A stretch of 64,000 bases of DNA from a virus (lineage: Duplodnaviria; Heunggongvirae; Uroviricota; Caudoviricetes): IMG/VR virus record IMGVR_UViG_3300033463_000003; one strand, written 5' to 3'. A program made the position numbers and the translations under genes. Position 1 is the first letter of the stretch; every line of letters starts with the position of its first letter. Under the pieces are notes generated by a model, which made no database searches, was not told where the DNA came from, and worked only from the letters and a program-made list of their open reading frames with translations. Shown one piece after another: positions 1-16,195 of this stretch.

Positions 1-55
1 ACATGTCACACTGTCACTGTGAAGATGACGGGTTCGACTCCCGTACGGTCCGCCA
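1..55 (+). tRNA. tRNA-Asp(GTC), 5'-truncated by window edge
   Basis: Anticodon arm TCACA-CTGTCAC-TGTGA, T-arm GGTTCGACTCC, 3' GCCA. Confidence 0.9.
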
Positions 56-58
56 CTT

Positions 59-145
59 AGAGCCTATACTTATTTCTTAATGGTTATAGAAGGTTCGATT
101 CCTTCACCGCCCTCTAACCCAGGGCAGTGATATTAGTTAGGCCAA
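59..145 (+). ncRNA. Bulged-stem element copy 1 (TACTTATTTCT family) carrying a tRNA T-arm mimic
   Basis: GA-GCCTA-TACTTATTTCT ... AGT-TAGGC-CAA; internal GAAGG-TTCGATT-CCTTC hairpin. Confidence 0.7.
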
Positions 146-205
146 AAAATTATTATTTATAAAGGAGATTAAGTTTATGTAAGTATTAAAAAGGAGGGCA
201 TAACA

Positions 206-457
206 ATGAGTTATAGCCGCAAACAATTTGATAAACATAAACTTAAAAAACTTGCCCATGATAGCTGTAATGGCTGGAAAGGCGGAGCTTATTATGACAG
301 AAGAAAAACCTGTTATAGACGCTACTGGAAAAGTCATGGACATACTTCAAGATATACTTATTATAAAAAGTATTATCACAAAAGAATGCGAAGATTTATT
401 AACAAGTATGGTTGGTATTCTAAAAAGGAATTTGATATAATCTGGACTTGTTGGTAA
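206..457 (+). CDS. Small basic hypothetical protein
   Basis: 83 aa, AAGGAG SD, K/R/Y-rich. Confidence 0.75.
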   Translation: MSYSRKQFDKHKLKKLAHDSCNGWKGGAYYDRRKTCYRRYWKSHGHTSRYTYYKKYYHKRMRRFINKYGWYSKKEFDIIWTCW

Positions 458-464
458 AATAATT

Positions 465-540
465 AGCTGGGTGGCCAAGTGGTTAAGGCACAAAGTTCAT
501 ACCTTTGGGATCGTCAGTTCAAATCTGACCCCAGCTACCA
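465..540 (+). tRNA. tRNA with CAT anticodon (Met or Ile2)
   Basis: AGCTGGG/CCCAGCT acceptor, CAAAG-TTCATAC-CTTTG, encoded CCA. Confidence 0.9.
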
Positions 541-542
541 TC

Positions 543-606
543 AGAGCCGATACTTATTTCTGTCTAGAGACAATTTCCTGCCACGAAATCCATATAGTTC
601 GGCCAA
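543..606 (+). ncRNA. Bulged-stem element copy 2 with anticodon-arm mimic
   Basis: GA-GCCGA-TACTTATTTCT ... AGT-TCGGC-CAA; internal ATTTC-CTGCCAC-GAAAT. Confidence 0.7.
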
Positions 607-612
607 TAATAT

Positions 613-686
613 GGCTTCTTAGTTTAAAAGGAAAACTGGATCCTTACAAGATCAGGACGGTGGAGCGTTACCATCAGAGGCCACCA
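613..686 (+). tRNA. tRNA-Val(TAC), non-canonical T-loop
   Basis: GGCTTCT/AGAGGCC acceptor, GATC-CTTACAA-GATC, T-arm GGTGG-AGCGTTA-CCATC, ACCA end. Confidence 0.75.
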
Positions 687-691
687 AATAT

Positions 692-766
692 GCGGACGTA
701 GGACAATGGTTAGTCCACTAGCTTGCCATGCTAGATATACGGGTTCGATTCCCGCCGTCCGCTCCA
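692..766 (+). tRNA. tRNA-Gly(GCC)
   Basis: CTAGC-TTGCCAT-GCTAG, canonical T-arm, TCCA end. Confidence 0.95.
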
Positions 767-771
767 CCGAA

Positions 772-905
772 GTGACTCTTCCTTATATCGTAAAGAATAA
801 GCGGGTATTGCTTACCTGGGTCCAAAGCAACGGTTAAGCTGGCATTACCGAGAGTACCAGAGAAGGTGTCTGTGGTTCACCTGAGGAGTTAGTCACCAAA
901 CCACA
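772..905 (+). ncRNA. Unknown multi-hairpin structured RNA between two tRNA-Gly genes
   Basis: GTGACT/AGTCAC closing stem, several internal hairpins, loop TGTGGTT complementary to 3' AACCACA. Confidence 0.5.
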
Positions 906-909
906 ATAC

Positions 910-984
910 GCGGGTATCGTCCAATGGTTAGGGCCTCTGCCTTCCAAGCAGAAGATACCGGTTCGACTCCGGCTACCCGCTCCA
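910..984 (+). tRNA. tRNA-Gly(TCC)
   Basis: TCTGC-CTTCCAA-GCAGA, canonical T-arm, TCCA end. Confidence 0.95.
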
Positions 985-1083
985 TACTAAAAATAATTAA
1001 GGAGAAAAAGTATGAAAACAATGAATTCACGAAGTCTAAGTTGTGGTCGCTGTAGTAGCAGTTGTTTTCATTCACTCAATTTT

Positions 1084-1161
1084 CTCCCAGTAGCTCAATC
1101 GGATTAGAGCATAACACTACGAATGTTAAGGTTGCAGGTTCAAGTCCTACCTGGGAGGCCA
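1084..1161 (+). tRNA. tRNA-Arg(ACG)
   Basis: TAACA-CTACGAA-TGTTA, CTCCCAG/CTGGGAG acceptor, GCCA. Confidence 0.95.
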
Positions 1162-1162
1162 A

Positions 1163-1237
1163 GCTTTGGTAGCCAAGTGGTTAAGGCCTCGGTCTGCAAC
1201 ACCGATATCGCGGGTTCAAATCCCACCCAAAGCTCCA
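1163..1237 (+). tRNA. tRNA-Cys(GCA)
   Basis: TCGGT-CTGCAAC-ACCGA, U discriminator, CCA. Confidence 0.95.
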
Positions 1238-1242
1238 TATTT

Positions 1243-1330
1243 GGAGGCATGGAGTAATGGTATCTCAATACCCTGCTAAGGTATCCATCGGGCAACTGAT
1301 GTCCGCGTTCGAATCGCGGTGCCTCCGCCA
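1243..1330 (+). tRNA. tRNA-Ser(GCT)
   Basis: ATACC-CTGCTAA-GGTAT, long variable arm, GCCA. Confidence 0.93.
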
Positions 1331-1345
1331 AATGAAAGGATTTTT

Positions 1346-1651
1346 ATGAAAGTGTATTTTATAGCTACAGCAAATAATATTAAAAAAGATAAGCTCGGTT
1401 GGATAGACTGGGGCAAATCACACAGAGTTGTTGGCTTTTTTGATAATTTAGAAGATGCTAAAAAGGCTGTTGAAGATAATTGGTGTGATCTATATGAAAA
1501 TGGCTACTATAAATATGCTATTATAGAAGAAAGGGAAGATGGTCTATACTCTACTTGTGATAATCCTATTTTCTATAAGTGGGAAGATGGTGGCTATAAA
1601 AAAATAAAAAGGCCAAGAGCAACTTATGGATTCTGTAATTTCACAATTTAA
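1346..1651 (+). CDS. Hypothetical phage protein
   Basis: Start moved to ATG 1346 (AAAGGA SD; the track start overlaps tRNA-Ser); 101 aa. Confidence 0.75.
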   Translation: MKVYFIATANNIKKDKLGWIDWGKSHRVVGFFDNLEDAKKAVEDNWCDLYENGYYKYAIIEEREDGLYSTCDNPIFYKWEDGGYKKIKRPRATYGFCNFTI

Positions 1652-1652
1652 T

Positions 1653-1736
1653 ACCCAGATGGTGGAATGGTAGACACCCGTGGCTTAGAACCACGTGCCG
1701 AAAGGCGTGCAGGTTCAAATCCTGTTCTGGGTACCA
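1653..1736 (+). tRNA. tRNA-Leu(TAG)
   Basis: CGTGG-CTTAGAA-CCACG, variable arm, ACCA. Confidence 0.95.
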
Positions 1737-1756
1737 ATATAATAAAGGACTAATTT

Positions 1757-2509
1757 ATGTATTTTAAAATTCCAGAAGCTTTTATTAGAAACAGACGTGA
1801 ATTATTTGCATTAATGGTTGCAACAGTTTCATCTATTCATGTAATTCAGCAACAAATAGATACAACTAATTTAACTATTTCAGAAATGCAAGAATTTTTA
1901 GCTAAAAAAGGCTTTATAAAAGTTGTTCCAGATAAACCTACTACATTACAAGAGCTAATTAATAAGCTAGATATCGCAAGTACAGCTTTTGTTAAATTAG
2001 CAAATAATAAATATATTGGAATAGTTGCAAATACATATTATTATACAGAAAACTTAGACAGTATAAAAGTTGCTGAATATTATTTAAATACTGAATATGG
2101 CCACAATCTTAAATATAAATGTATAAAATGTGGAAATTGTTGTCGTGTATATGGCTCAAATGGTGGCGTAATATTTTCTGAAGAGGATATTAACAAAATA
2201 GAACAAAATACACCATATACAATTCGTGATAAAGTTGTATTGGTATCTAATAAAAGTAATAAAAAACTATATCATCTTAGCCTTAAAAATAACCAATGTG
2301 AGTTCTTAGATAAAGATAATAGTTGTAAGCTAATTAATACATTATCTGTTAATTGCCAACTACCTGTAATTTGTTATTTATTTAGAGCTGGTCGTGGTGC
2401 AGGTATTAATTTCTTTAGCTGCCCAGGTATTGGATTGCCTGATGGTGATAACTGGGATATATTAGATGTATTTAATTGGATTGATAAATATTGTAAAGAA
2501 TATCAATAA
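1757..2509 (+). CDS. YkgJ-like Cys-cluster (Fe-S/Zn) domain protein
   Basis: CIKCGNCC, CEFLDKDNSC, PVICYLF motifs in the C-terminal half. Confidence 0.7.
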   Translation: MYFKIPEAFIRNRRELFALMVATVSSIHVIQQQIDTTNLTISEMQEFLAKKGFIKVVPDKPTTLQELINKLDIASTAFVKLANNKYIGIVANTYYYTENLDSIKVAEYYLNTEYGHNLKYKCIKCGNCCRVYGSNGGVIFSEEDINKIEQNTPYTIRDKVVLVSNKSNKKLYHLSLKNNQCEFLDKDNSCKLINTLSVNCQLPVICYLFRAGRGAGINFFSCPGIGLPDGDNWDILDVFNWIDKYCKEYQ

Positions 2510-2510
2510 T

Positions 2511-2593
2511 GCGCAAGTGGTGGAATTGGTATACACGCAGGTCTAAGAAGCCTGTGCTTCGGCATAAGAGTTCAAGTCTCTTCTTGCGCACCA
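2511..2593 (+). tRNA. tRNA-Leu(AAG) (A34, presumably inosine)
   Basis: CAGGT-CTAAGAA-GCCTG, Leu-type D-arm and variable arm, ACCA. Confidence 0.9.
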
Positions 2594-2596
2594 TAT

Positions 2597-2683
2597 GGAG
2601 GGTTGTGATAATTGGTAGTCGGGCTGTCTTGAAAACAGTTGGGTCGCAAGGCCTTTAGGGTTCGAGTCCCTAACCCTCCGCCA
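2597..2683 (+). tRNA. tRNA-Ser(TGA anticodon, reads UCA)
   Basis: GCTGT-CTTGAAA-ACAGT, variable arm, GCCA. Confidence 0.93.
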
Positions 2684-2738
2684 TATAAAAGTTTATTAAA
2701 AAATCATATTAAAAGTATGGTTTTTTTCTTTTTATAAC

Positions 2739-2746
2739 TGTATAAT
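2739..2746 (+). promoter_or_regulatory. Early/middle promoter motif TGTATAAT (also at 5083, 6461, 8827, 12039, 15153, 16151, 19501, 23020, 31108, 40121)
   Basis: 11 intergenic copies, each shortly upstream of a gene or RNA start, usually after a terminator T-tract; no TTGACA -35. Confidence 0.8.
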
Positions 2747-2764
2747 ATTACGAGGTGTTTTATT

Positions 2765-3202
2765 ATGGGATTAGATCAATATTTAAGAGCAAAAACAACT
2801 AAAAGAGAGTATCAAGGTGCTACTGGTGCTTGTAGTGGCCTTTTTGGTTTGGCACCAGATGATGAAGGAATGGTTGAAATTGGTTATTGGAGAAAAGCTT
2901 ATGACCAAGATAACCTTATTTCAAGATATGCTGAAGCTGATAATGGTTGTAATAATAGATTAATTAAAAAAGAAGATATTGATAGTATTATTAAAGAAGC
3001 TAAACATATTCTTAAAACACATAAGTTTGATAAAGAAGATGGCTTTGATATTACAGAAAGTACAGAAATTGAAGATTTTATTTCATATAGTACTTGGCAA
3101 AGTAAAAGAAAGTGGAAAGATACTATTAGGTTTTTTACAGATGCTAAAACAATTTTAAAAGAAGATCCAGAAGCAGAGATTTATTACTGCACTTGGTATT
3201 AG
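2765..3202 (+). CDS. Hypothetical phage protein (MGLDxY...YWRK type)
   Basis: 145 aa, GAGGTG SD. Confidence 0.8.
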   Translation: MGLDQYLRAKTTKREYQGATGACSGLFGLAPDDEGMVEIGYWRKAYDQDNLISRYAEADNGCNNRLIKKEDIDSIIKEAKHILKTHKFDKEDGFDITESTEIEDFISYSTWQSKRKWKDTIRFFTDAKTILKEDPEAEIYYCTWY

Positions 3203-3211
3203 GAGTAATTT

Positions 3212-4147
3212 ATGGTTAAAGATGCATTAGGCGATAGAATGAAAGAATACTACGAAGGAGTTACTAAAACTAAGCTTGTTCGTAGAATGCCTGTTATTAT
3301 TAGATTAGATGGTTGCCATTTCCATACTTTTACGCGTGGTTTTAGAAAACCTTTTGATGAACTTCTTAATAAAACTATGCAAGCAACTATGAAATATCTT
3401 TGTGAAAACATCCAGGGAGTAGTTTTAGGATATACACAATCAGATGAAATTACTTTAATTTTGGTTGATTATGCTAAACTTGAAACATCTGCCTGGTTTG
3501 ATTATGAAATCCAAAAGATTGTTTCAGTTAGTGCTGCTCTTGCTACATATGCTTTTAATAAATATTTTAATGAATTTTATCTTTATCAACTTGCTGAAAA
3601 ATGTGGGGAAACAGATGAATTTGATTTAGTTTATGATAGAGCTCGTAAAAAAGGTGCTTACTTTGATAGCCGTGCTTTTAATATTCCGAAAGAAGAAGTT
3701 ACTAATTGTGTTTTATGGCGACAACTTGATGCTGAAAGAAACTCAGTTAACTCATTAGGGCAAAGCTTATTCCCACATAAAGCTCTTCAAGGATTAAGTT
3801 GTAAAGCCCTTAAAGCTAAAATTGAAGAAGAAAAAGGCATTGTTTGGGGCAATCTTCCTACCGAACAAAAACGTGGAACTTGTTGCATTAAAAACAGGAC
3901 TTATACTCTTCCTGATGGCCAAGTAGTTAAAGAAAAAGAATATATTAATTATAAAGGCCACTTTGGAACTTTCTATTTTGATGGTGATGGTTATTATTTC
4001 TTTTATAGGGACAATGAATCATATGAAGTCAAAAGCATTAAGCTTGAAGTAAAAGAGCATGCTGAATGGGTTATTGATAAAGATATTCCAAGATTTATTG
4101 ATAGCGGCCGTGAATATATTGAAAAACTTATTAATGTAGGAGAATAA
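3212..4147 (+). CDS. tRNA-His guanylyltransferase Thg1-like protein (3'-5' polymerase)
   Basis: RMKEYYE, IRLDGCHFHTFT, YTQSDEI, FDSRAF, WRQLDAERNS motifs. Confidence 0.93.
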   Translation: MVKDALGDRMKEYYEGVTKTKLVRRMPVIIRLDGCHFHTFTRGFRKPFDELLNKTMQATMKYLCENIQGVVLGYTQSDEITLILVDYAKLETSAWFDYEIQKIVSVSAALATYAFNKYFNEFYLYQLAEKCGETDEFDLVYDRARKKGAYFDSRAFNIPKEEVTNCVLWRQLDAERNSVNSLGQSLFPHKALQGLSCKALKAKIEEEKGIVWGNLPTEQKRGTCCIKNRTYTLPDGQVVKEKEYINYKGHFGTFYFDGDGYYFFYRDNESYEVKSIKLEVKEHAEWVIDKDIPRFIDSGREYIEKLINVGE

Positions 4148-4150
4148 TCT

Positions 4151-4369
4151 ATGGAAGATAATGTTATAAGAGTTGAATCATCAGTTTCATTTGGAACACT
4201 TAGCTGGATTGTTTGGGTAGTGTTTATGATTTTATATTATGGAACAGGAACAATTGCTCATTGGCCAGTTTTTTGGATTTGGTTTCCATTCTGGCTCCCA
4301 CTTGCTATTGGTGGTTTAGGTTTATTACTTTGGCTTATATTATTTATTATTATTAAAGTAACAGAATAG
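4151..4369 (+). CDS. Small membrane protein
   Basis: Two hydrophobic segments, Trp-rich (all TGG). Confidence 0.8.
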   Translation: MEDNVIRVESSVSFGTLSWIVWVVFMILYYGTGTIAHWPVFWIWFPFWLPLAIGGLGLLLWLILFIIIKVTE

Positions 4370-4377
4370 GTAAAAAT

Positions 4378-4977
4378 ATGGCATTATTAAAACATTTACA
4401 TACAGTTGGTAAACATAGAAGATACGTTAGAAGTATGTGCTTTAAAATGGGTATTCCATGGCAAGGCTTAGTTCATGATCTTTCCAAATATTCAATTAAA
4501 GAATTAAGTATAGCAAAATATTACACAGGAACAAAGAGCCCACATGCAGCTTGTCGTGAATTAAAGGGATATAGCCCAAGCTGGATGCATCATTATCATA
4601 AAAATAAACATCATTGGCAATTTTGGCTTGATATAGAAGATTGGCCAAATAATGTAGTTCCAGTTAAAATGCCTTATAAATATGTTATTGAAAGCTTCTG
4701 TGATATGGTTGGAGCAAGTAAAGCATATAATCCAAAAAGTTGGAATGAAAGTATGCCTTGGGATTATTATGAGCAAAAATGTGCAGGTAATCGCCTCATG
4801 CACAAAGAATCTGAATACTTGCTTGCGAAACTACTTTGGAATCTTAAAATCCACGGACAAAAGAAATTTATAAAGTGGTATAAAGGCGCTAAAAAATATC
4901 TAAAAGAAAATTATATAAATGGCTCATTAGAATTTAATGATAATGAAACTTCTATCTACTTTGAAATAAGAGCTTAA
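4378..4977 (+). CDS. DUF5662-like HD-fold protein
   Basis: HDLSKYS, WMHHYHKNKHHWQ, CDMVGAS motifs. Confidence 0.8.
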   Translation: MALLKHLHTVGKHRRYVRSMCFKMGIPWQGLVHDLSKYSIKELSIAKYYTGTKSPHAACRELKGYSPSWMHHYHKNKHHWQFWLDIEDWPNNVVPVKMPYKYVIESFCDMVGASKAYNPKSWNESMPWDYYEQKCAGNRLMHKESEYLLAKLLWNLKIHGQKKFIKWYKGAKKYLKENYINGSLEFNDNETSIYFEIRA

Positions 4978-5010
4978 AAAGGTTGGTTTTATATACCAGC
5001 CTTTTTATTT
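4977..5010 (+). terminator. Intrinsic terminator
   Basis: AAAAGGTTGGT...ACCAGCCTTTT hairpin plus T-tract. Confidence 0.7.
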
Positions 5011-5107
5011 TATTTAAAACAACTAATTATAATAAAAACTGATAAAAAGGTATGCAAATTAAGCATATCTTTTTTTATTTATTGTATAATATATATGAGG
5101 TTTTAAT

Positions 5108-5950
5108 ATGGAAAAAGCTATTGTAGAATTTGGAAAAAGAATGGATGCTGCTGAAGATAAGGCTTTACTTGTTGATTATGCTGAAGGCGCAACAAGAGTT
5201 TTAGATTTAGGAGCTGGTACTGGTAAGATTTCACGTGATATTGCCGAAAAATGGGGGGCTCATTGTGATGCAGTTGATATTCAGTTTAAAGATAATTGTC
5301 AAAATACAGATAAAGTTACTTACTATGGTATGAGTATTATAGACTTTCTTAGAACATATAGTAATAAAAAATATGATTGTATTATTTTGTCTGCTATTTT
5401 ACATGAATTAGATGCTCACACACTTAACTTTTTGAAAGAATATCTACCAATTATGATGATGAAGAACTGTAGAATTCTTATTCGTGAGCCATTTTATGAC
5501 AGTGCTTTAGGCCCAGTTCAAAAAGAAAATGCAGAAAAGTTTATTGACTTAGTTTCTAAAAATGTTTCTGCTGATAAAGCCTTTGAATTTTATTTTGCTA
5601 CAAAGTTAAGTTTAGGTTGCAGTTTATTTAGCCGCCAGATTAACTTTGCTTCATCAGTAGATTGGGCTAACCTTGCATTTACTATTTCATATGGTGAACA
5701 AAGCTGGGAACGTGAAAAACATGAGTTTAGATATGCTTATAGTTTAGACTGGTGTAAAGATTTCTTCAATTTTACTAATAAAGAATTCCATGATAGTGTA
5801 GTTAGACCATTTACAGGTTTTCAAGTTTATCCAGTTTTAGATAGAACATATAAACAACATTTTATTAATGTAGGTATTCCAGGTGAAGCTTTTGATTTAA
5901 TTCAATATACTGGAATGATTGTAATTATTGACTATTCTAAAGGGGAATAA
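5108..5950 (+). CDS. Class I SAM-dependent methyltransferase
   Basis: VLDLGAGTG motif I, YDCIILSAILHEL. Confidence 0.85.
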   Translation: MEKAIVEFGKRMDAAEDKALLVDYAEGATRVLDLGAGTGKISRDIAEKWGAHCDAVDIQFKDNCQNTDKVTYYGMSIIDFLRTYSNKKYDCIILSAILHELDAHTLNFLKEYLPIMMMKNCRILIREPFYDSALGPVQKENAEKFIDLVSKNVSADKAFEFYFATKLSLGCSLFSRQINFASSVDWANLAFTISYGEQSWEREKHEFRYAYSLDWCKDFFNFTNKEFHDSVVRPFTGFQVYPVLDRTYKQHFINVGIPGEAFDLIQYTGMIVIIDYSKGE

Positions 5951-5951
5951 T

Positions 5952-6392
5952 ATGAAAAGATTAACACCAGAAGAAATAAAATTTGTAAAAGAAACTAAAT
6001 TTACTCCAACAGTTTATCAATGTGATCAATATTATTTAACTTCATTTGATGACTACACTGACGCTGCTAAAGTTGCTAAAGAGAAGTATGGTGTAGATTT
6101 AGATAAATTTATTGCTAAGAATATTGCAGCAAGTTTAAATGATGCTGATGCCATTTCTTTAGATTATGTTGCTATTTATTTATTATATAGCTTCTTCACA
6201 AAAGATGAACTTGAAAAAATGACACCTAAAGAAGCTCTTAGCTGGCTTATGGAGTATAGATATTATTTCGGGTTTAGAAAATGGGCTGAACAAGATGCAG
6301 CTAATGCTATTTATGATGCTATTGCTATTTATGATGGTGCTGCAGAGTTCTATGATCAGCCAGATGGAAATGTTTGGTGTCGTGAAAAATAA
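5952..6392 (+). CDS. Hypothetical protein
   Basis: ATG 5952 after AAGGGG SD; 146 aa. Confidence 0.75.
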   Translation: MKRLTPEEIKFVKETKFTPTVYQCDQYYLTSFDDYTDAAKVAKEKYGVDLDKFIAKNIAASLNDADAISLDYVAIYLLYSFFTKDELEKMTPKEALSWLMEYRYYFGFRKWAEQDAANAIYDAIAIYDGAAEFYDQPDGNVWCREK

Positions 6393-6474
6393 TTTTTTTT
6401 GAAAAATTTTAAAATTTATTAGCTAAAATAATAATCAGCAGGAAAAAATAAATTTTCTGCTGTATAATATATAG

Positions 6475-8325
6475 CTAGTTACGCAGAAATGCGTTTCTAT
6501 ATATAAGATATATTAAGGCCAGACCCGACATGTTGAAATATCTAGGATGAGGTCGCCAATACAGCCTTAATATATATCCGGACTTATAGCCAGTAAGCCA
6601 TATGACTAGACATGAGCTTACTCTTGAAAAGGCACAACGGGGTTTGGCAAGTAATATCCACAACTAGTTATTAAAACTTGCTGGGCAAAAATAAGCATAA
6701 GTCCATTAACAACGAGGGCACGTTGTAAAATAACGAGTTTAGCCGAGTCTTATAGACGGTATGGAGTCTGATATAAACCCATGCAACCCACATTCTTTAT
6801 AGGAGGTATGGAACGCTAGAATAAATACTTTGGGATCTAGCTTATCTGGCCGGCCCAATGGTTAGTTTGGGGTGCAACTCCTCAACTGGTCTCAAAACAC
6901 CCATGCAGCAGTAACCAGGGTGAATACTAGAACGTCAAAACGTGAAAGAGCCTGCTGCATTTAGAGAGTCGGAGTATTTACCGGCTGCGGGTTCGCCCGC
7001 TTCTTATTAGAGCTTAAAAAGCACTTGCACCATTATGAACTTCCGAGAAAGCAGAAGGTGAAGCTGACGAAAAGCCTAAGCGTCTATAAATAAAGTTTAT
7101 TGGTAAATTTATGAAAACATAGGGTACTCACACCGAATGTTTCTTGCAGCAATGCGCTTAACTGGTGGGTTGGGGTTAAAGTTGTCTACCAATGTGAGAA
7201 AAACAACTGCTCCCTTGGCTAATTTAGTCCGGTAGGGAGATAATATAAGTTTAGGTGGCCCAGGAGGTATTTATTATTCCCCTCTCCCCAGAAACATAGT
7301 GAGGTCACCAGCCTATAATCAGGTATAGCAATGGCACCTGGATGCTATTATCAAATAGCATAACTTACGAGGCCGCTTTATGCCGCCGCCCTATTGAGTT
7401 TCAACTCTGATAGGTCCAGAGGACGCCGAACGAAAGTTCTACTCCCGAAGAGACGACCTAAGCATGTCCTTAAACTGCTTATTATAGAAGGAAAACTATA
7501 CAACCCGTATGCACCCACTACTACGTTAATAAATGGGTATATTTATTTCCCGGTCCCTTAACGGCAGTTTCCAGTTTCTGTGAAACTAAATAATATAAGG
7601 ACTGCAGGCAAATGAAGCAATTCACACTACCTGCTTATTAGTTCCACCACCTGGTACTGAATGTTGTTTGATAGTGAGCTGTGGTCAATATAAAAATATT
7701 GCAAGAGAAAGACGGCATAACAGCAATAACACAAAATAATCCGTCTCTCATTAATATGTGTGTATCTATCAAGTAAGTGGACTACCTCAGCCTATTAAAC
7801 GTCAGTTTAGCCTAAAGCTATTAATTAATAGGTAATTAACCAAGATTAAAATTGCGAAAACACTTATAGAAATATAAGCTACTTGGTATAGAGAGTGATA
7901 AAGCCAGGGAACTCCAGCCGTTATGGTTGCAAGGAGGGTTGAGCCTCCCGTCTGTTAATCGAAAAAGCCGGACTTCGCTAGTCTTGACGTTAAAGAACAT
8001 CGATTCCGTTATAGTGTCTGGTAAAACTACAAAGAGAGCACAGGAGTTATACGTCGATAGCCCATTTAGAGCGTTTGTGGGAATTGGGTAAGAAACTAAC
8101 CGTGGAAATGTGCAGAGTCGGTGAAAACGTATATCCCAAGGCAATGTAAGAATTATAGTAGGCCAGCCTGGCTGTTGATCATAGTTCTCGGGTAACGTTG
8201 TCCCTGTTCACAATGTCTTGTACTAACATTGTTTTTCTAATAAAATATAATAGGATTTATATCCATGGCGATAAATCGTAAATCCTGGTTGCCTTCAAGT
8301 CCGAAATGACGTTAAACTATGGAGG
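6475..8325 (+). ncRNA. ~1.85 kb ORF-free block of structured RNA(s)
   Basis: Follows promoter at 6461; visibly more GC-rich than flanking genes; many closed helices (e.g. ATATTAAGGC/GCCTTAATAT, GGACTTAT/ATAAGTCC, ATGCAGCAG/CTGCTGCAT, AGCCAGG/CCTGGCT). Confidence 0.65.
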
Positions 8326-8331
8326 TATAGA

Positions 8332-8562
8332 ATGTTAGGATTTACACTTTATGGAACAACAGATGTTCCACATGAATATTACGTTTATGCTGATGGTGTA
8401 GATTGTAAACCAGCTTACTTCTTAACTAGAAAAGAAGCCGAAATCTACATGAATAATTATGCTTCTTCACATGGTATTCAATTAGAATGCACTGAATGTG
8501 ATAAGCATGAGCGTAAATATTCTAATCATAAGGGTGTTAGATTTTATATTAATAGAATTTAA
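8332..8562 (+). CDS. Hypothetical protein
   Basis: 76 aa, GGAGGT SD. Confidence 0.75.
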   Translation: MLGFTLYGTTDVPHEYYVYADGVDCKPAYFLTRKEAEIYMNNYASSHGIQLECTECDKHERKYSNHKGVRFYINRI

Positions 8563-8701
8563 TGCCCTTAACAATTCATTTATAATTAGAAGAGATTCTA
8601 AATAATATTTACCTGAGCAGTACGACTTATGCCTGAAACCTGATATAAAGGAATCTTGGGTATGTCAGAAACAACTGACTATGACATAAGCAAAAAGGGC
8701 G

Positions 8702-8776
8702 GAAACTATACTTATTTCTTCAGTGCTTTAGAACAAATGATCTAAAAAGAAATAGGCTGCAAGTTAGTTAGTTCAA
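8702..8776 (+). ncRNA. Bulged-stem element copy 3 (covariant)
   Basis: GA-AACTA-TACTTATTTCT ... AGT-TAGTT-CAA. Confidence 0.65.
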
Positions 8777-8868
8777 ATATTATTTAGAATCTTTTTTATT
8801 TTTTTATTTACTTTTAAAATTTTTATTGTATAATATTAATGTGGATGAAAACTGAAAGGATCCACAAT

Positions 8869-8925
8869 AGAGCCGATACTTATTTCTGGTTATTTATAAG
8901 AATGTGTTAAAAACAGTTCGGCCAA
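8869..8925 (+). ncRNA. Bulged-stem element copy 4, in the leader of the 9004 gene
   Basis: GA-GCCGA-TACTTATTTCT ... AGT-TCGGC-CAA, ~35 nt after promoter 8827. Confidence 0.7.
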
Positions 8926-8930
8926 GTAAT

Positions 8931-8992
8931 TAAACAGCTTTTAATGTGTTAATACTTGGGGTAACTAGCATATTAAAGGCTGTTTATTTTTT
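8931..8992 (+). terminator. Long hairpin plus T-tract (possible attenuator) before the 9004 SD
   Basis: TAAACAGCTTTTAATGTG...CATATTAAAGGCTGTTTA-TTTTTT. Confidence 0.55.
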
Positions 8993-9003
8993 CGGAGGTC
9001 ATT

Positions 9004-10977
9004 ATGACAAACATTCAAAAAATCTTAATTTCTAGACATTACTTACTTGCAGCTCCAATTGCTGAAGAAGATAAAGTAAAAGTTGCATATTATAATGCAT
9101 ATCTTTTAGCTAACTTTGGTATTGTAGTTGATAAGCCACAACGTTTAAGCGATATTAGCGTTAAAGAAATTGCTGATGTTTATAAGCTTAGTGTTCCAGC
9201 ATCTTTCTACAAAAACCCACAAGATACTAAATATTTTTCTTGTGCAGAATTACTTATTGAACAATTAGTTTCTTACTTTTTAGTTGAAACTGGCACAGGT
9301 ATCTATAATAGAGTCGAGATCTTTGAAAAGAATCTCCCTGAATATAAGCAAGGTGATGAACTTAAACTTCGTGAGTTCAAGATTTTAACTGCAGAAGAAG
9401 CTGATGTTGTTTTAGCTGATATTGCTAAAGCATACTGTGCTTATACTCGCCCATGGGCTCTTGATGAAGAAGAAGAATTTATCTGGTTATTTGAACATGG
9501 TTATTATCAAAACTTTGAAGTCGCATGTGGTGATAATGCTATTAAATTACTTGAAAAAGATGCTTCTTTTGCACGCTTTTTATTCAAAAAAGATTTAGTT
9601 AAGATTTCAGTTACTCGCTGCGGTGAAAAATCTAAACTTATGCTTGATGCTAAAACAGCTGACCTTATTAGAGCAGCTATTCCTTATGTTAAGGATTGCC
9701 CAATGTCTAAAAAGCAAGCTAAGTATTTTAATACTTTAATTGCTAAAGTTGGTGCACAAGGCAAAGTTAAAGAAGCCTCTAATGCTCGTTCACCATATAA
9801 AGCAGCTCAAGAAGCCCTTAATAAAGGTGATGTTTTAGGTGCAGCTAAGATTTATGCAGCTAATGGTTCTCTTTTAGAAAGAAACTTAAAGATGCTTATT
9901 TCAAGAGCTGACCCACAAACAGCTTTAGATATTTTAGGCTTACTTAAAGCTAAAAATCCACTTGTTCTTTTCCAAATTATGTCCACATTAATGGCTGATA
10001 ATGGGGAAGCTCGTACCTTTACATTTACTAAAAATAGATTAGTCAAACATCATATTGAAACTGAATATGAACATACTTGGCGTAAATCTAAGTTAAATGA
10101 TGCCACAAGAAAGCTTATTCATGATGCTTGCCTTGTTAAAATTGAAGAGGGCTATCGTGCCTTTGATTCTTTAGGCAAAGTCTATATTTCACCAGATTTC
10201 TTCAAGATTGGTGTCCCAGTTAATACATCAGCTACTGGTAAAGGTATTGATGTATTACCAACAAGCTCTAGACTTCCACTTCCAACAAATAAAGTTCGTA
10301 CTTTCGTTTATTGGAAAGATGCATTTGATATTGATGCTTCCTTAATTTTTGTTGATAATGTTGGCAAATTAAGCTACATGTATTTCGGCAACTATTCTGG
10401 AAAACCATTTGGTCATGATGTCCTATTTTCTGGCGATAATAGAAATCATACTGGCTCTGAATATTATGATATTGATGTTGAAGCTCTTCATAGAAGAGGC
10501 ATTAGATATGTAATTCAAGCTTTCCATGGCTTCTGCTCTAATTTAAACCAAGGCGAAATTTATTGTGGTTATCAAAATAAAGAAAACTTTAATACACAAG
10601 CCTGGGACCCAAAAAACATTGAATTAAAAATTCATGTTAAGGGTGATACAAGAGCATTTATGGCTTTTGCCTTAGATTTAGCAACTAATGAAGTTGTTAT
10701 CTTAAATCAACTTTTAGACGAAGAATTAAGAGTTGTTAACGGTAAGAACTTTGCTCCAATTGCTAAGTTACTTGACCCAGCTCAACTTGAATTAAATGCT
10801 GGCTTAATTGCTTCATTTAGAGCAAGTGAAGTTGTTGCTACACCAGAAGAAGCTGATGTTGTATTTGATGCTAATTTCAAACCAGAAATAGCTGAAGATG
10901 GCACTGCAATTCAAAAAGTTGTTAGACCATTTGAAGTTGAAAAGATTGTTGCATTAGCTAATGGTGCAAATATTTAA
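9004..10977 (+). CDS. Large helical-repeat protein with C-terminal TerD-like domain (putative TROVE/Ro-like RNA-binding protein)
   Basis: C-terminal RTFVYW..FDIDASL, FSGD, GSEYYDID motifs typical of TerD-like domains; TROVE-likeness of the N-terminus is inference. Confidence 0.65.
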   Translation: MTNIQKILISRHYLLAAPIAEEDKVKVAYYNAYLLANFGIVVDKPQRLSDISVKEIADVYKLSVPASFYKNPQDTKYFSCAELLIEQLVSYFLVETGTGIYNRVEIFEKNLPEYKQGDELKLREFKILTAEEADVVLADIAKAYCAYTRPWALDEEEEFIWLFEHGYYQNFEVACGDNAIKLLEKDASFARFLFKKDLVKISVTRCGEKSKLMLDAKTADLIRAAIPYVKDCPMSKKQAKYFNTLIAKVGAQGKVKEASNARSPYKAAQEALNKGDVLGAAKIYAANGSLLERNLKMLISRADPQTALDILGLLKAKNPLVLFQIMSTLMADNGEARTFTFTKNRLVKHHIETEYEHTWRKSKLNDATRKLIHDACLVKIEEGYRAFDSLGKVYISPDFFKIGVPVNTSATGKGIDVLPTSSRLPLPTNKVRTFVYWKDAFDIDASLIFVDNVGKLSYMYFGNYSGKPFGHDVLFSGDNRNHTGSEYYDIDVEALHRRGIRYVIQAFHGFCSNLNQGEIYCGYQNKENFNTQAWDPKNIELKIHVKGDTRAFMAFALDLATNEVVILNQLLDEELRVVNGKNFAPIAKLLDPAQLELNAGLIASFRASEVVATPEEADVVFDANFKPEIAEDGTAIQKVVRPFEVEKIVALANGANI

Positions 10978-11050
10978 TCGGCTTTAAAAAATTATTATAA
11001 AAGTAGCATTAATTTGCTACTTTTTATTTTAAAAAGCTGTATATTATATT

Positions 11051-11392
11051 ATGAGTAGAGTAAAAACACAGAACACAGATCATTCATATATACGTGCTGC
11101 TGAACGTTGTGGTTGGAGCAAAAAGAAAGCTCGTGAAATGATGCGTTTAGCTTCCCGCTATGGTACTGCTGCTGGTAATTTACAACCAGGACCTGTCAAA
11201 GATTTTATTACTGCAAGGCAAGAGTGTACCCATAGACGTATTAAATTATATCAAGGCTATGTTTTTGTATTTGCTTCTACTAGTACCAAATGTATTACTG
11301 TCTATCCGTTAGAAATAGGTAAAGAACTACAAGAAACTGAAGAAAAACAGTTAACAGAAATTGAAAAAATTGAAGCTATGTTAAGGCTATAA
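11051..11392 (+). CDS. Hypothetical protein (possibly leaderless)
   Basis: 113 aa; ATG immediately after TGTATATTAT, no SD. Confidence 0.7.
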   Translation: MSRVKTQNTDHSYIRAAERCGWSKKKAREMMRLASRYGTAAGNLQPGPVKDFITARQECTHRRIKLYQGYVFVFASTSTKCITVYPLEIGKELQETEEKQLTEIEKIEAMLRL

Positions 11393-11426
11393 AAAATTAG
11401 CTATAATTATTTTGAGGATTAACATT

Positions 11427-11678
11427 ATGGAAGAAGAACTTAAATGGTTAGTTGATGGCCTTATCAGAAATGAGCGTGTTGAAGATGGCCCAGAATTAGA
11501 AAAACCTGAATGTCAACAAATACTTAATGCAGTTGTTAAAAAATTAGGCTGTGCATGTGAATTAATTGTAAATATTAATATAGAAAGAAATGGCATTTTT
11601 TATGATTATTTAATTGATCATGAAAATATTAAAGAAAGCCGTGTTTTAATTGAAGAGTGGGATAACAGATACCTTTAA
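11427..11678 (+). CDS. Hypothetical protein
   Basis: ATG 11427 after GAGG SD. Confidence 0.7.
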   Translation: MEEELKWLVDGLIRNERVEDGPELEKPECQQILNAVVKKLGCACELIVNINIERNGIFYDYLIDHENIKESRVLIEEWDNRYL

Positions 11679-11687
11679 AAATTGTAT

Positions 11688-11696
11688 GCTAAATTA
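11688..11696 (+). promoter_or_regulatory. Putative late promoter GCTAAATTA (also at 26104, 31633, 38245, 44739, 44835, 48357, 52063, 58785, 61230, 62408; variant at 24164)
   Basis: 11 exact copies at gene boundaries, mostly before virion genes; analogous to the T4 late box TATAAATA. Confidence 0.8.
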
Positions 11697-11719
11697 TATA
11701 TTGGTAAAGGAGTATAATT

Positions 11720-11986
11720 ATGGCAAAAGGTAAGGGTAAAAAAGCAAGCGCTGGTAGTGGACTTCGTAAAAAACATGGCCCAAAAAAGCACATGTTTAAA
11801 GAATACAAGCCAATGGTAAGAGCTTTTGCACAAGCAGGTTTATTAGACAAATATCATAACTTTGAATCTTGGCAATTAGCTATGGCTGCAAGAGGAAGTA
11901 AGAAAGCAACTTATGCTGATTTTAAAGCATTTGTTGTCCTAAGTATGGAAGAGAAAAAAGCATACTTTGCAAACCTCAAAAAATAG
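11720..11986 (+). CDS. Small basic protein
   Basis: 88 aa Lys-rich, AAAGGAG SD, own GCTAAATTA promoter. Confidence 0.8.
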   Translation: MAKGKGKKASAGSGLRKKHGPKKHMFKEYKPMVRAFAQAGLLDKYHNFESWQLAMAARGSKKATYADFKAFVVLSMEEKKAYFANLKK

Positions 11987-12079
11987 TTAAAAAACATTAA
12001 AAATATTAAAAAGAGCTGCTAATCCAGCTCTTTTTTATTGTATAATATATTGTAGATAAAAATTTAGGAGGTTTTTGTT

Positions 12080-14350
12080 ATGCGTACCTTATTAATTACA
12101 CGTGGTGCACCTGGTGCCGGAAAATCAACTTGGGTTAAAAATAATCATTTAGAAGATTATACTCTTTGCCCAGATGATATTCGTATTATGTGTGCTTCCA
12201 GAGATCTTCAAGCTGATGGCCATACTGCTATTGCAAGAAATAATGAAGTTGAAAAAGAAACCTGGAAGATTATTTTTCAATTACTTGAATATAGAATGCA
12301 ACGTGGTGAATTAACAGTATTGGATGCAACTGCCTCTAAAACAAAAGATATTCAACAATATAAAGAATTAGCTGAACAATATAGATATAGAACCTATGTT
12401 GTTGATTTTACTGATGTTCCTCTTGAAACTTGCTTAAAACAAAATAGAATGCGCCCAGAAATGAAATGGGTTCCAGAAGAAAGCATTAAAAATATTTATG
12501 CTCGTTTTGCTACACAGCCAGTTCCAAGCAGAGTTGATGTAATTAAACCGGATGAATTAGATAAAATCTTAGAAAAACCTATAGATTTATCTCAATATAG
12601 AAAAGTTGTTTTTATTGGCGATATTCATGGCTGTTATGATACTTTGATGCAATATCCTGATTTCAAAGAAGGACTTAAAGATGATACAGCATATATCTTT
12701 TTAGGCGATTTCGTGGACCGTGGCAATCAAAATGCTGAAGTCATGAAGTTTATCTATTCTATTATGAATAAGCCAAATGTATGCTTGTTAGAAGGCAATC
12801 ATGAACGCTGGCTTAGAGACTATGGAAATAATGTTCCAGCCAAATCAAGAGAGTTTGAAGACAAAACAAAACCACAACTTATTGCAGGCGGTTTTGACCA
12901 AAAAATGGCTAGAATATTCTATAGAAAAGTTCGTCAAATGTCTCACTTTATGTTTAATGGTATAGAAGTTTTAGCTTGCCATGCAGGTATTCCACATATG
13001 AATAATAATTTAGTTTATTTACCAACAGAAGCTTTTATTCATGGTGTTGGAACATATAATGACTACCAAACAATTGCTGAAACTTGGATGACTGAAACTA
13101 AAGAAAATCAATATTTAATTCATGGCCATAGAAATACACATGAAGATCCAACTGAAATAGCTGATAGAGTTTATAATCTTGAAGGCAAAGTTGAATTTGG
13201 TGGTAATTTAAGAATTGTTGAACTTACTTCCGATACATTCAATGGTTGGGCTTTTGGTCACCCTGAAGTTGGTTTAGTTACTGGAACACACTGGAATATA
13301 GTTGAATTACATAACTGCCAACCAATTACTGAGGATGCTATTATTGAAGAAAGAAAAGTTGATACAGTTGAAGAAGCTATTGATTATCTTAGATTAAATA
13401 AATTTGTCCAAGAAAAACAATTAGGTAATGGAGTTTCTTCTTTCAATTTTACCCGTGAAGCTTTCTATGATGCTAACTGGAATAAACAAACTATTTTAGC
13501 ACGTGGCTTATTCTTAGATACTGAAAATAAAAAGATTATGGCACGCTCATATGAAAAGTTTTTTAGAATTAATGAAGTTCATGAAACTGAAATGATTGCA
13601 CTTAAAAATAGACTTCAATTTCCAGTCCAAGCCTATGTAAAAGAAAATGGATTTTTAGCAATAGTATCTTATGATTATAAAAATGATGATTTATTTATTG
13701 CTTCTAAGTCCACAAATAAAGGCGATTATGTTGAATATATTAAAGCTCAACTTGAACCTTATAAAGAAAAATTATTAGACCTTTTAAGAACAAATTATAA
13801 TGATGGTATTCCATGTTCAGCAGTATTTGAATGTGTTGATATTGAACATGACCCACACATTATTAAGTATCCAAAAAGCAAAATAGTATTATTAGATATT
13901 ATTGAAAATACTTTAAATTATAAAGCTAGAACTTATTACTCATTAAAAGAGGCTGCTGCTTATATTGGCTGCCCGGTTAAAGAATTAGCATTTGAAATAA
14001 AAGATTATGATGAATTTAGAAATCTTTATAATGAAGCCCAAGATGAAGAATATAAGTATAATGGTGAATATATTGAGGGTTTCGTTTTTGTGGATGCTTC
14101 TGGTTTTATGACAAAATTAAAAACAGGTTATTATAATTTCTGGAAACATATGAGGGGCGTTGCTGATCAAACTCTTAGATGTGGAAATTATGGTAGAACT
14201 GGCGCACTTCAATCAGCCCAAGCTAATTATTTCTATGGTTTCTGTAGACAATTATTTAGAAATGATCGTGATAAAGAAACAAAATCTTATCCATATAAAA
14301 CAGATATTATTTCGCTTCGTGAAAAGTATCTAGCTGAGTTTAGAAAATAA
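12080..14350 (+). CDS. Polynucleotide kinase - metallophosphoesterase - RNA ligase fusion (RNA end healing/sealing)
   Basis: P-loop GAPGAGKS; GDIHG, GDFVDRG, GNHE, HGH; ligase ARGLF, KFF, KENG, EGFV, KLK. Confidence 0.92.
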   Translation: MRTLLITRGAPGAGKSTWVKNNHLEDYTLCPDDIRIMCASRDLQADGHTAIARNNEVEKETWKIIFQLLEYRMQRGELTVLDATASKTKDIQQYKELAEQYRYRTYVVDFTDVPLETCLKQNRMRPEMKWVPEESIKNIYARFATQPVPSRVDVIKPDELDKILEKPIDLSQYRKVVFIGDIHGCYDTLMQYPDFKEGLKDDTAYIFLGDFVDRGNQNAEVMKFIYSIMNKPNVCLLEGNHERWLRDYGNNVPAKSREFEDKTKPQLIAGGFDQKMARIFYRKVRQMSHFMFNGIEVLACHAGIPHMNNNLVYLPTEAFIHGVGTYNDYQTIAETWMTETKENQYLIHGHRNTHEDPTEIADRVYNLEGKVEFGGNLRIVELTSDTFNGWAFGHPEVGLVTGTHWNIVELHNCQPITEDAIIEERKVDTVEEAIDYLRLNKFVQEKQLGNGVSSFNFTREAFYDANWNKQTILARGLFLDTENKKIMARSYEKFFRINEVHETEMIALKNRLQFPVQAYVKENGFLAIVSYDYKNDDLFIASKSTNKGDYVEYIKAQLEPYKEKLLDLLRTNYNDGIPCSAVFECVDIEHDPHIIKYPKSKIVLLDIIENTLNYKARTYYSLKEAAAYIGCPVKELAFEIKDYDEFRNLYNEAQDEEYKYNGEYIEGFVFVDASGFMTKLKTGYYNFWKHMRGVADQTLRCGNYGRTGALQSAQANYFYGFCRQLFRNDRDKETKSYPYKTDIISLREKYLAEFRK

Positions 14351-14360
14351 GAGGTAAACT

Positions 14361-15140
14361 ATGCAACAAAAATTATATGATGTGGTTATTGTTGGAGCAA
14401 GTGATGAAGGTATTGAAGCAGCTAAATACTTCTTTGCTAAAAATCTAAACATCCTTCTAATTAGCCGACACTTTGATAACTTTAAAAGAACATTTGCAAA
14501 AATTCCATACTTAACCGGCAATGTTATCTTTTCTGGTTATATGCACGGGCTTATTATGCTCTACTTAGAAGATGGCAGCTCTATTTGTACAAAAAATGTT
14601 ATTTTAGCTACAGGTACACGTCATACTCCAGTCAAAAGTGATTGTAAAAATGGTATATATTATAATATTAACAGTATTAAAAATACCAGAAAATATCATA
14701 AATTAGTTATTATTGATGACACAGAGGCTGGAGTAAAACATGCCTTGTTATTAGCAACCAAATTTAAGGAAATATATATTTGTACAAAGCTTCTTAAATT
14801 GCCAATATCTGAAGAGCTTAAACAAAAGTTGCAAGAAACTCCAAATATTCATATTATGCCACTTTGTTCAGTTAAAGAGTTTGTGCACAATAATATGAAC
14901 GTCCTCTATAAAGTTATTCTTGATACATATGCTGAGGTACCATGCCAATATGTATTAGCAAGTACAAATAGAATTGCTGAAGTACCTTGTTTAAGTAAAG
15001 GCATGATTGAAATAGACCAATATGGTTATTATATTGTTAATAAGCATTATGGCTCAAAACTAGTGCCGGGTGTATTTGCGATTGGCGCTTGTACAGGCAG
15101 CAATGATAAAATAAAATTTGGCAATATTTTGCTAAAATAG
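14361..15140 (+). CDS. Degenerate thioredoxin-reductase-like FAD-fold protein
   Basis: YDVVIVGA, VILATG, PGVFAIGAC present; GxGxxG and CxxC eroded. Confidence 0.7.
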   Translation: MQQKLYDVVIVGASDEGIEAAKYFFAKNLNILLISRHFDNFKRTFAKIPYLTGNVIFSGYMHGLIMLYLEDGSSICTKNVILATGTRHTPVKSDCKNGIYYNINSIKNTRKYHKLVIIDDTEAGVKHALLLATKFKEIYICTKLLKLPISEELKQKLQETPNIHIMPLCSVKEFVHNNMNVLYKVILDTYAEVPCQYVLASTNRIAEVPCLSKGMIEIDQYGYYIVNKHYGSKLVPGVFAIGACTGSNDKIKFGNILLK

Positions 15141-15196
15141 CTAAAAAATCATTGTATAATATAGTAGAATATAGAAAGGTTAAAGTTGGTGATACC

Positions 15197-15775
15197 ATGT
15201 TAACAGATGAAAAGAAATATTCAAACAAAGTTAAATTTATTGAGCTATTAACGAAACTTAATATTGATTTAACTGAACTTACAAAATACTTAGATGCTAT
15301 CAATTATTTTGATAAACCATATACGGCTCAATATACAAGAGCTTATTCTGGTGGCTTATGTGAACAAGCATTAATGCTTTGTCATGAACTTGGTGTTTTA
15401 TGTAATGCATATTTCCCAGGTAAGTATTCAGAAGAAGATGTAATTAAAGTTGCATTATTTAAAGATTTATATAGAGCTGAAATGTATGAACCATATTCCA
15501 GAAATGTCAAAAATGATGAAACTGGTGAATGGGAAAAAGTGCTAGCTTATAGAACTAAAGAAGAACGCCCAACATTCGGTGATTTAGGTTTTAGTTCATT
15601 TATGATTGCAAGAAAGTTTATTGACTTAAATGATGAACAAATTGAAGCAATTTGCCATTCATCTTTTAGGGATGTATATACAAGTGACATTCATGATATT
15701 TTAAAGTCATACCCGTTAACAACTTTAACGCATATGGCAGAAATGGTCACAAACTATTTAACTGTAGAGGAATAA
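15197..15775 (+). CDS. HD-domain-like protein with lost His ligands
   Basis: PYTAQYTRAYSGGLCEQ and ALFKDLYR match the layout of HHxxxGGLxxH / LLHDxxK. Confidence 0.6.
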   Translation: MLTDEKKYSNKVKFIELLTKLNIDLTELTKYLDAINYFDKPYTAQYTRAYSGGLCEQALMLCHELGVLCNAYFPGKYSEEDVIKVALFKDLYRAEMYEPYSRNVKNDETGEWEKVLAYRTKEERPTFGDLGFSSFMIARKFIDLNDEQIEAICHSSFRDVYTSDIHDILKSYPLTTLTHMAEMVTNYLTVEE

Positions 15776-15778
15776 TCT

Positions 15779-16102: not shown

Positions 16103-16195
16103 CTAGCAGCTATAAATTAAATAAAGGCGAAGAAATTCGCCTTTTTATATTGTATAATATATTGTAGTAATTTGCCCACAAGGAGGCTAATATAG

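Follow-up and report, generated by a model that had tools for sequence, protein, structure and literature searches.

A conserved, modular non-coding RNA locus of an uncultured rumen jumbo phage

What do almost two kilobases of phage DNA encode when no gene can be found in them? The question is raised by positions 6393-8331 (~1.9 kb) of a 64,000-nucleotide stretch of a Caudoviricetes genome (IMG/VR record IMGVR_UViG_3300033463_000003), which we call the window and in which all genes lie on the + strand. A sequence-only reading, made by a model from the letters and their open reading frames (ORFs), had proposed that ~1.35 kb of this region, behind a promoter at 6461, is a string of folded RNAs without coding capacity rather than one gene. 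Based on comparison with relatives of the phage, we find that 6393-8331 holds a non-coding RNA locus that is real, conserved, and modular, gene-free as had been claimed but larger, with an array of RNA units that extends to ~8240. To judge from the alignments presented herein, it contributes no fewer than three RNA families that have covariation support and no entry in Rfam 15. The explanation that we consider probable is that a promoter-driven + strand precursor carries a row of independently folding RNA domains, which we designate H1, A, B, X, C, and D.

The lack of coding capacity was borne out under four genetic codes. The + strand of 6393-8331 has no ORF of at least 60 amino acids (aa) under table 11, no frame is opened in the stretch under code 4 or with TAG=Q or TAA=Q, and an independent gene call on L017, a near-identical JGI metagenome contig with one mismatch to the window, likewise leaves it without genes. 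No tRNA or tmRNA is found in it by ARAGORN or the Rfam tRNA clan, and a blast of the stretch against the window returns the self-match only, with no repeats, iterons, or paralogs. The GC content of its segments and modules is 0.37-0.50, compared with 0.31-0.32 in the flanking genes and ~0.32 in this AT-rich DNA overall. The last two observations bear on the idea that the locus acts as DNA, serving as a replication origin or a packaging site by means of hairpins in its single-stranded form. In phages, a large non-coding region is often an origin and the promoter could prime replication, but the absence of iterons and direct repeats argues against such a role, as does the raised GC, since the presumed origin of phage K is the lowest-GC locus (PMC9241854). 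The modules are moreover accessory, they lie in different genomic places in relatives, and their conserved G-U pairs are strand-specific, so that we regard a DNA-level element as extremely unlikely.

Modules with covarying helices

The evidence that carries our answer is the pattern of substitutions between relatives. The alignments indicate that the helices of module B, module C, and the 3' domain of module A are maintained by compensatory substitutions: in these and in A as a whole, doubly changed pairs exceed slid controls (0-4) and 496-500 of 500 shuffles, the latter being a control that ignores phylogeny. Covariation was among the checks that the sequence-only reading had named, and it came out in favor of folded RNA. 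Several helices contain invariant G-U pairs (for example, GU:5 in A8 and A5, and UG/GU:3 in A6), and because each of these would turn into a C-A mismatch on the opposite strand, it is the + strand that folds, in agreement with the direction of the promoter.

The clearest case is the A 3' domain (6850-6960, + strand), which was compared in five phages and has 24 pairs, 11 of them doubly changed (2-3 in slid controls, and a number reached by none of 500 shuffles). It consists of the helices GGCCGG/CUGGUC, a UUGGGG/CCUCAA hairpin, and two crossing stems, in which GCAGCAG (6905-6911) paired with CUGCUGC (6952-6958) crosses CACCC (6898-6902) paired with GGGUG (6918-6922). The shorter of the two reads AGCCC/GGGCU in the relative G001 and CUCCUC/GAGGAG in G012, and since both of the mutually crossing stems covary, the domain is a likely candidate for an H-type pseudoknot. 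All of the stems quoted in the sequence-only reading are present at their places to within one base, and the one at 6903-6960 (ATGCAGCAG/CTGCTGCAT) proved to be the outer stem of this pseudoknot, kept via compensatory changes in the five phages. A hammerhead, considered because of a hairpin-GAAA element in the domain, was dropped as it had no model support.

Module A as a whole (6579-6968, + strand, ~390 nucleotides (nt)) leads from a 5' hairpin (6592-6622) through a core (6682-6841) to the 3' domain and is 88% identical to its counterpart in G001 (L027 1489-1871). The differences cluster in the flanking stems, with 159 of 160 positions of the core identical, and in this two-sequence comparison seven of 93 pairs are doubly changed versus 0-1 in slid controls. 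The local hairpin AGTAAGC/GCTTACT at 6592-6622 shows three compensatory pairs and no broken ones between the window and G001. The fold that had been drawn across 6580-6704 survives in part: its TGACTAG/CTAGTTA helix is kept with one compensatory change, but its two other helices break in G001, where the outer helix (GGACTTAT/ATAAGTCC) loses two of eight pairs and the nested one (CCAGTAAG/CTTGCTGG) three of eight, in a comparison of this fold with the competing local hairpin that covers these two sequences. The AGTAAGC/GCTTACT and TGACTAG/CTAGTTA helices together would form another pseudoknot.

Module B (7005-7398, + strand, ~390 nt) is made of two closed domains, B1 (7007-7160) and B2 (7166-7393), the second of which has an 11-bp long-range helix as its closing stem. 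It is 82% identical to its counterpart in G001 and 88% to that in the metagenome contig L059, and in the three sequences (RNAalifold and pair counts) 11 of 98 pairs are doubly changed, with 0-2 in slid controls and none of 500 shuffles reaching that number. Module C (7636-7949, + strand) belongs to a family of 200-345 nt with a closing helix, GUUCCaCC (7640-7648)/GGgGAAC (7905-7912), variable hairpin inserts, and two 3' hairpins; in six sequences, 10 of 39 pairs are doubly changed (slid controls 1-4, 0/500 shuffles). The stem proposed at 7705-7749 is present, but as a window-specific insert in the variable arm of C and not as a unit of its own. RNase P RNA, suggested by a AAAGCCGGGGAACUCCAG motif in C, and resemblances to tmRNA and T-box were dropped, none having model support.

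The remaining units have fewer relatives or none. Module D (7950-8130, + strand), which lies beyond the region first delimited and overlaps a neighboring finding, shares 72% identity with a G004 block that is flanked by two tRNA genes, with three doubly changed pairs in these two sequences. H1 (6508-6575, + strand), found in the window only, is a hairpin domain closed by 12 bp with z = -3.4 (none of 200 shuffles is as stable) and no homolog in any locus compared. Unit X (7399-7635, + strand, GC 0.41) has no nhmmer or blast match and includes the hairpin 7604-7634, for which z = -2.7 when it is folded alone; the proposed folds 6509-6574 and 7604-7634 are thus those without relatives for comparison. 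The notion of an array of RNAs is right in that the units are separable, but they are multi-helix domains of 110-400 nt and not five hairpins, and the AT linkers that were taken as their borders are not where the real module boundaries fall.

Several observations weigh against a row of independently folding, conserved RNAs. The sequence-only reading had named folding no stronger than shuffled controls as evidence against it, and on energy alone this is what was found: in sliding 120-nt windows over 6540-8220 the folding z-score is mostly near 0, and for whole modules it is -0.01 (A), +0.24 (B), -1.1 (X), and -1.3 (C). The five folds originally listed give z = -3.4, -3.1, -1.4, -2.7, and -2.9, values to be read with boundaries chosen after the fact. 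The covariation sets are small (two sequences for the whole of A, three for B, five for the A 3' domain, six for C), and the sequences that test the structures are also those from which they were built. Recent exchange, and not constraint, could explain why the A core is nearly identical in the window and G001, and H1 and X have no relatives at all. We infer the transcription, ends, and processing of the array from the DNA, and no partner protein, target, or ligand is indicated for the modules. Since thermodynamics does not distinguish the stretch from shuffles, the case is decided by comparison with relatives.

A mosaic of blocks among relatives

The source of the window is an uncultured rumen jumbo phage, probably one of a Firmicute, as indicated by its contigs (near-identical L017, and a longest contig of 273 kb with one of the window's proteins), by the size of relatives found via the flanking 657-aa protein (IMG/VR contigs of 146-233 kb with large tRNA arrays), and by a Pnkp-phosphatase-RNA-ligase fusion that is closest to Firmicute phage homologs. 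Homologs of the array were obtained by searching the relatives' whole records, to which pattern scans added further sequences. The stretch is absent at the syntenic place in 16 relatives, beside homologs of the 657-aa protein, and it is also absent beside homologs of the upstream 146-aa protein. No DNA match was found in the 50,697 phage records of INPHARED (distant-mode blastn with 6393-8331, megablast with 1-20000), a nucleotide search that had been proposed at the outset, or in other fragmentary records. A metagenome scan with a word from B gave one new sequence, L059, whereas IMG/VR scans with two words from the A core returned G001 only; a word from the B core gave three chance matches in repeat-like DNA, two of the six matches to an A 3' word are chance matches in coding DNA, and the motif of module C does not occur in 185,579 genomes of prokaryote species.

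In these relatives the blocks of the window recur in other arrangements. The ORF-free region of G001 (IMGVR_UViG_3300031992_000025) is 3.1 kb long and runs from promoter and leader (78% identical to the window) to the counterpart of 7005-7401 (82%), ~950 nt of unrelated DNA, the counterpart of 6583-6968 (88%), ~700 nt of unrelated DNA, and pieces of 7636-7853. The window has the order leader, H1, A, B, whereas in both G001 and L059, a 2-kb contig with a block 88% identical to 7009-7391, the leader runs directly into B. The C block (7636-7949) is known from G001, G004, G005, G011/G014, and G013, with a ~100-nt mini form in G015; the D block (7950-8119) occurs in G004; and the block of the A 3' domain (~6850-6960) occurs in G011/G014, G012, and v1346. 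When ten loci were compared all against all, the result was a mosaic of 30-400-nt blocks, the order of which differs among the window, G001, L059, G011, v1346, G004, G005, and G013.

The settings of single blocks are equally telling. G004 has D and C between tRNA genes and on the tRNA strand; the A 3' domain of G012 is preceded by a homolog of the window's 76-aa protein and directly followed by a tRNA; and the C of G011 stands alone as a complete gene, from a TTGACA-17-TATAAT promoter of its own to an intrinsic terminator. It is these reordered, stand-alone, and between-tRNA blocks that make the locus a string of separate modules and not one gene, and by this arrangement the units are separate evolutionary cassettes. 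When the A 3' domain was searched for with a covariance model (R1), each array had a single copy, 416 kb of loci gave none besides, and five relatives that are 91-100% complete had none at all, from which we conclude that the cassettes are accessory. Both G011 (L055 ~7800-9300, - strand) and v1346 (L058 ~3900-5700, - strand) have promoter-headed, ORF-poor loci of 1.5-1.8 kb with a GC content of 0.50-0.54; these share blocks in different order, including the A 3' domain, and have no match in Rfam. The tRNA array of G004 also gives a weak match to YrlA, a Y RNA-like family (L028 2324-2393, - strand, 33.8 bits, E = 3e-4).

Such a distribution could also be expected of functionless DNA, that is, decayed genes or recombination debris of a tRNA region that hitch-hikes, for example, with homing endonucleases. 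The patchiness, the mosaic order, and a SegE-like endonuclease beside the G015 array would fit, as would folding energies no better than those of shuffles and the lack of relatives for H1 and X. However, A (88%) and B (82-88%) are more conserved in relatives than the neighboring 657-aa gene, which is 70% identical at the DNA level, and the compensatory changes are concentrated in helices. In addition, GC is raised within an AT-rich genome, promoter and leader are conserved, and no residual frame appears under the codes tried. We therefore give the functionless DNA explanation little weight and judge it quite unlikely.

Signals along the array

The promoter motif TGTATAATA at 6461-6469 (+ strand), with its -10 TATAAT at 6464-6469, had been proposed as the start of the array, and its distribution agrees with this. 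It occurs 14 times in the window versus 2.0 expected (a seven-fold excess, not reached in any of 100 shuffles), 11 of the copies are on the + strand and mostly just ahead of genes, and it is invariant in the window, G001, and L059. By these counts TGTATAATA is a credible phage promoter, with a predicted start near 6476; the next copy is at 8827, and none lies within the array. A hairpin at 6437-6463 (+ strand) precedes it, its 3' arm running into the -10 region, and in G001 and L059 the stem differs in sequence yet keeps its pairing (alignment A7). This hairpin may mark where the upstream operon ends, or it may serve to occlude the promoter. Between promoter and H1 is a leader (6470-6507, + strand), with a hairpin at 6481-6494 (+ strand) that has a GNRA loop, is followed by UUUCUAUA, and is terminator-like by scan. 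Two of its pairs are compensatory, ACGCA/UGCGU in the window versus ACAGA/UCUGU in G001 and L059, and it is probably a 5'-end stabilizer or a punctuation element; together with the 6437-6463 hairpin it gives z = -4.1.

Two further hairpins have U-rich tails. The first, at 6987-7008 (+ strand) between A and B, is GCGGG-UUCG-CCCGC followed by UUCUUAUU, a tail that resembles the leader's UUUCUAUA; it is terminator-like in the terminator scan, and we infer that it serves as punctuation between the two modules. The second, read from the sequence at 8211-8239 (+ strand), is ACAATGT/ACATTGT followed by UUUUUCU and is likely the end of the array transcript. A sigma-70-like site lies at 8223-8251.

We now put forward the following mechanism for the locus. 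The promoter at 6461-6469 would drive a long + strand precursor, starting near 6476 and made early or at middle times, whose 5' end would be protected by the covarying GNRA hairpin. The domains H1, A, B (as two closed domains), X, C, and D would follow each other along it, punctuated by the hairpins at ~7000, where the UUCG hairpin may cause partial termination, and at ~8235, with the transcript ending near 8239. Host RNases would then cut the precursor into stable module-sized RNAs, as they do for the stable RNAs of phage tRNA clusters, and, as a trans-acting scaffold, each RNA would bind a protein, an RNA, or itself. The patchy, accessory distribution of the modules and their neighbors, namely tRNA and RNA-repair genes, with Thg1, methyltransferase, and the Pnkp-ligase, point to a possible role in translation or tRNA metabolism, or in counter-defense, and not in core replication.

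Specifically, a tRNA array (1-2683, by ARAGORN and Rfam) lies 3.7 kb upstream of the RNA array, a Thg1-like gene is followed by DUF5662 and methyltransferase genes, and further on are the Pnkp-phosphatase-RNA-ligase fusion, SbcCD, and a topoisomerase. In the tRNA arrays of relatives are some Rfam tRNA matches of 134-196 nt (L003 13848-13981, 14484-14679, and 14898-15057; L011 13594-13742; L007 16038-16197), which resemble tRNA genes interrupted by long insertions, possibly introns.

The first gene downstream of the array (8332-8562, + strand) encodes a 76-aa protein that ends in RFYINRI and has no Pfam family, and it raises the alternative that the array is a long structured 5' leader regulating this gene in cis. 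There is indeed no TGTATAATA between the two, and homologs of the protein (L043 2768-2959; L037 248-463; L026 2936-3163) adjoin tRNA/non-coding RNA arrays in G005 and G012. Nevertheless, the genes that follow the RNA elements differ among the window, G001, G011, and G012, which is not what a cis leader or riboswitch would show: downstream of its array G001 has another promoter and another ORF, the small gene of G012 is upstream of the RNA element, and a terminator closes module C of G011. In the window itself, the terminator-like hairpin at 8211-8239 and the sigma-70-like site separate the array from the gene. We consider regulation in cis to be very unlikely. Two other stable structures lie in this neighborhood, a 19-bp hairpin at the end of the 76-aa ORF (8529-8571, z = -5.0) and a very stable long hairpin with a U tract (8880-9000, z = -5.5), which is attenuator-like and lies between the promoter at 8827 and the ribosome-binding site of the 657-aa gene.

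Relation to known phage RNAs

The family search that had been suggested gave no match: Rfam 15 has none in the whole window at gathering thresholds, and with E up to 10 (6300-8450) it returns only noise of miRNA and snoRNA type; the arrays of G001, G004, G005, G011, and v1346 have no Rfam match either. The same search finds GOLLD (RF02032) in the relative G002, so it works on this phage group. In G002 (233 kb), GOLLD scores 156 bits at L003 18531-19044 (+ strand), between two tRNA-Glu genes of its tRNA array, a setting equivalent to that of the locus in the window, and this phage is without modules A-D.

ROOL, a second large RNA, was first found in rumen data. Both GOLLD and ROOL are phage or prophage RNAs, often near tRNA islands, with function unknown, and GOLLD is conserved in its 3' region and variable in its 5' region, with a linker that can carry tRNAs (PMC12286853). 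The window resembles them in that it holds phage-encoded, large, GC-raised, multi-helix non-coding RNA with candidate pseudoknots near a tRNA array, which leads to the alternative that the locus is one giant ornate RNA of ~1.8 kb and the modules are its domains. The single promoter motif, with no internal TGTATAATA, would agree with this, as would the 3'/5' division and tRNA-island location of GOLLD (PMC12286853), its presence in a relative, and the GC-rich loci of 1.5-1.8 kb in G011 and v1346. What speaks against it is that the blocks are reordered and recombined in relatives, C being a stand-alone gene in one of them, that A, B1, B2, and C are each closed by their own helix, and that no covarying helix joining two modules was found. 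Neither at gathering (150 bits for GOLLD) nor at E up to 10 (6300-8450) does the window match the GOLLD model, and the ROOL model (RF03087) is matched neither by the window at E up to 10 nor, with E allowed up to 1, by the arrays of G001, G004, G005, G011, and v1346. The difference is one of several 110-400-nt units reshuffled between phages versus one conserved molecule of 600-800 nt, and we regard a single giant RNA as unlikely.

The reading that we prefer, a precursor with a row of separate domains, has parallels within tRNA clusters. The stable RNAs RNAC and RNAD of phage T4 measure ~120-140 nt and lie inside its tRNA cluster. Their function is still unknown (PMC9697503). In relatives of our phage, C and D (G004) and the A 3' domain (G012) likewise lie between or beside tRNA genes, and in that position tRNA processing would release them. 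The array in the window, unlike RNAC and RNAD, is 3.7 kb from the tRNAs, has its own promoter, and holds no tRNA. Phage K has two abundant long non-coding RNAs (lncRNAs) beside its tRNA genes, one of which, lnc001, has its own early promoter (PMC9241854). These Kayvirus RNAs, lnc001 and lnc002 (635 and 1154 nt), are similar in being long non-coding RNAs of a large Firmicute phage, but they are known from RNA-seq and those of the window from comparative sequence analysis, and the Kayvirus loci have no DNA similarity to the window (50,697 phage records including Kayviruses).

A different kind of precedent, one for the decoy role suggested in the sequence-only reading, comes from counter-defense. 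Phages carry folded RNAs that neutralize RNA-regulated abortive-infection toxins, and the pseudo-ToxI of phage phiTE is reportedly a phage RNA mimic of a type III antitoxin. These mimics are short (~36 nt) and often repeated, whereas the modules of the window are long, unique, and non-repetitive; the window has no Rfam match to ToxI, abiF (RF03085), or other antitoxin RNAs, and no internal repeats. AbiF is described as regulated by its RNA (PMC12373285). A near-threshold abiF motif occurs in G015 (L040 6712-6748, - strand, 36.8 bits versus a gathering threshold of 37), directly 5' of the mini form of C; no AbiF protein accompanies it, and the next ORF (L040 5342-6175, - strand) is that of the SegE-like homing endonuclease, of GIY-YIG/NUMOD3 type. 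The motif is possibly an antitoxin-RNA mimic, and as the only hint at a decoy function, it suggests such a role in another phage and not in the window.

RNAs of this general kind are therefore already known near phage tRNA islands (GOLLD, ROOL, T4 RNAC and RNAD, and the Kayvirus lncRNAs), and the locus differs from them as a multi-cassette array with units that change order between phages. Although large phage RNAs beside tRNA islands were first described years or decades ago, none has yet been given a function. Here, in one group of uncultured rumen jumbo phages, the families behave as exchangeable cassettes in a promoter-driven array. Module C (200-345 nt) and the A 3' domain (~110 nt) are small and well defined and would suit structure probing, pull-down, and structural work, and their patchy distribution among close relatives permits natural comparisons. 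Energy screens by z-score would have missed these RNAs, and the gene-free kilobases of phage genomes merit comparative analysis.

More tentatively, and with considerable doubt, we suggest that rumen jumbo phages keep a mobile pool of structured-RNA cassettes that are exchanged like tRNA genes and act as RNA-only effectors. The pool would span several undescribed families, including the near-invariant 160-nt core and a pseudoknotted 3' domain common to otherwise unrelated large RNAs. Its cassettes could be counter-defense decoys against RNA-guided or RNA-regulated host systems, compare the abiF-like motif, or self-assembling particles of the GOLLD/ROOL type. If this is true, RNA, and not protein, would be a major accessory-gene currency of the rumen jumbo phages.

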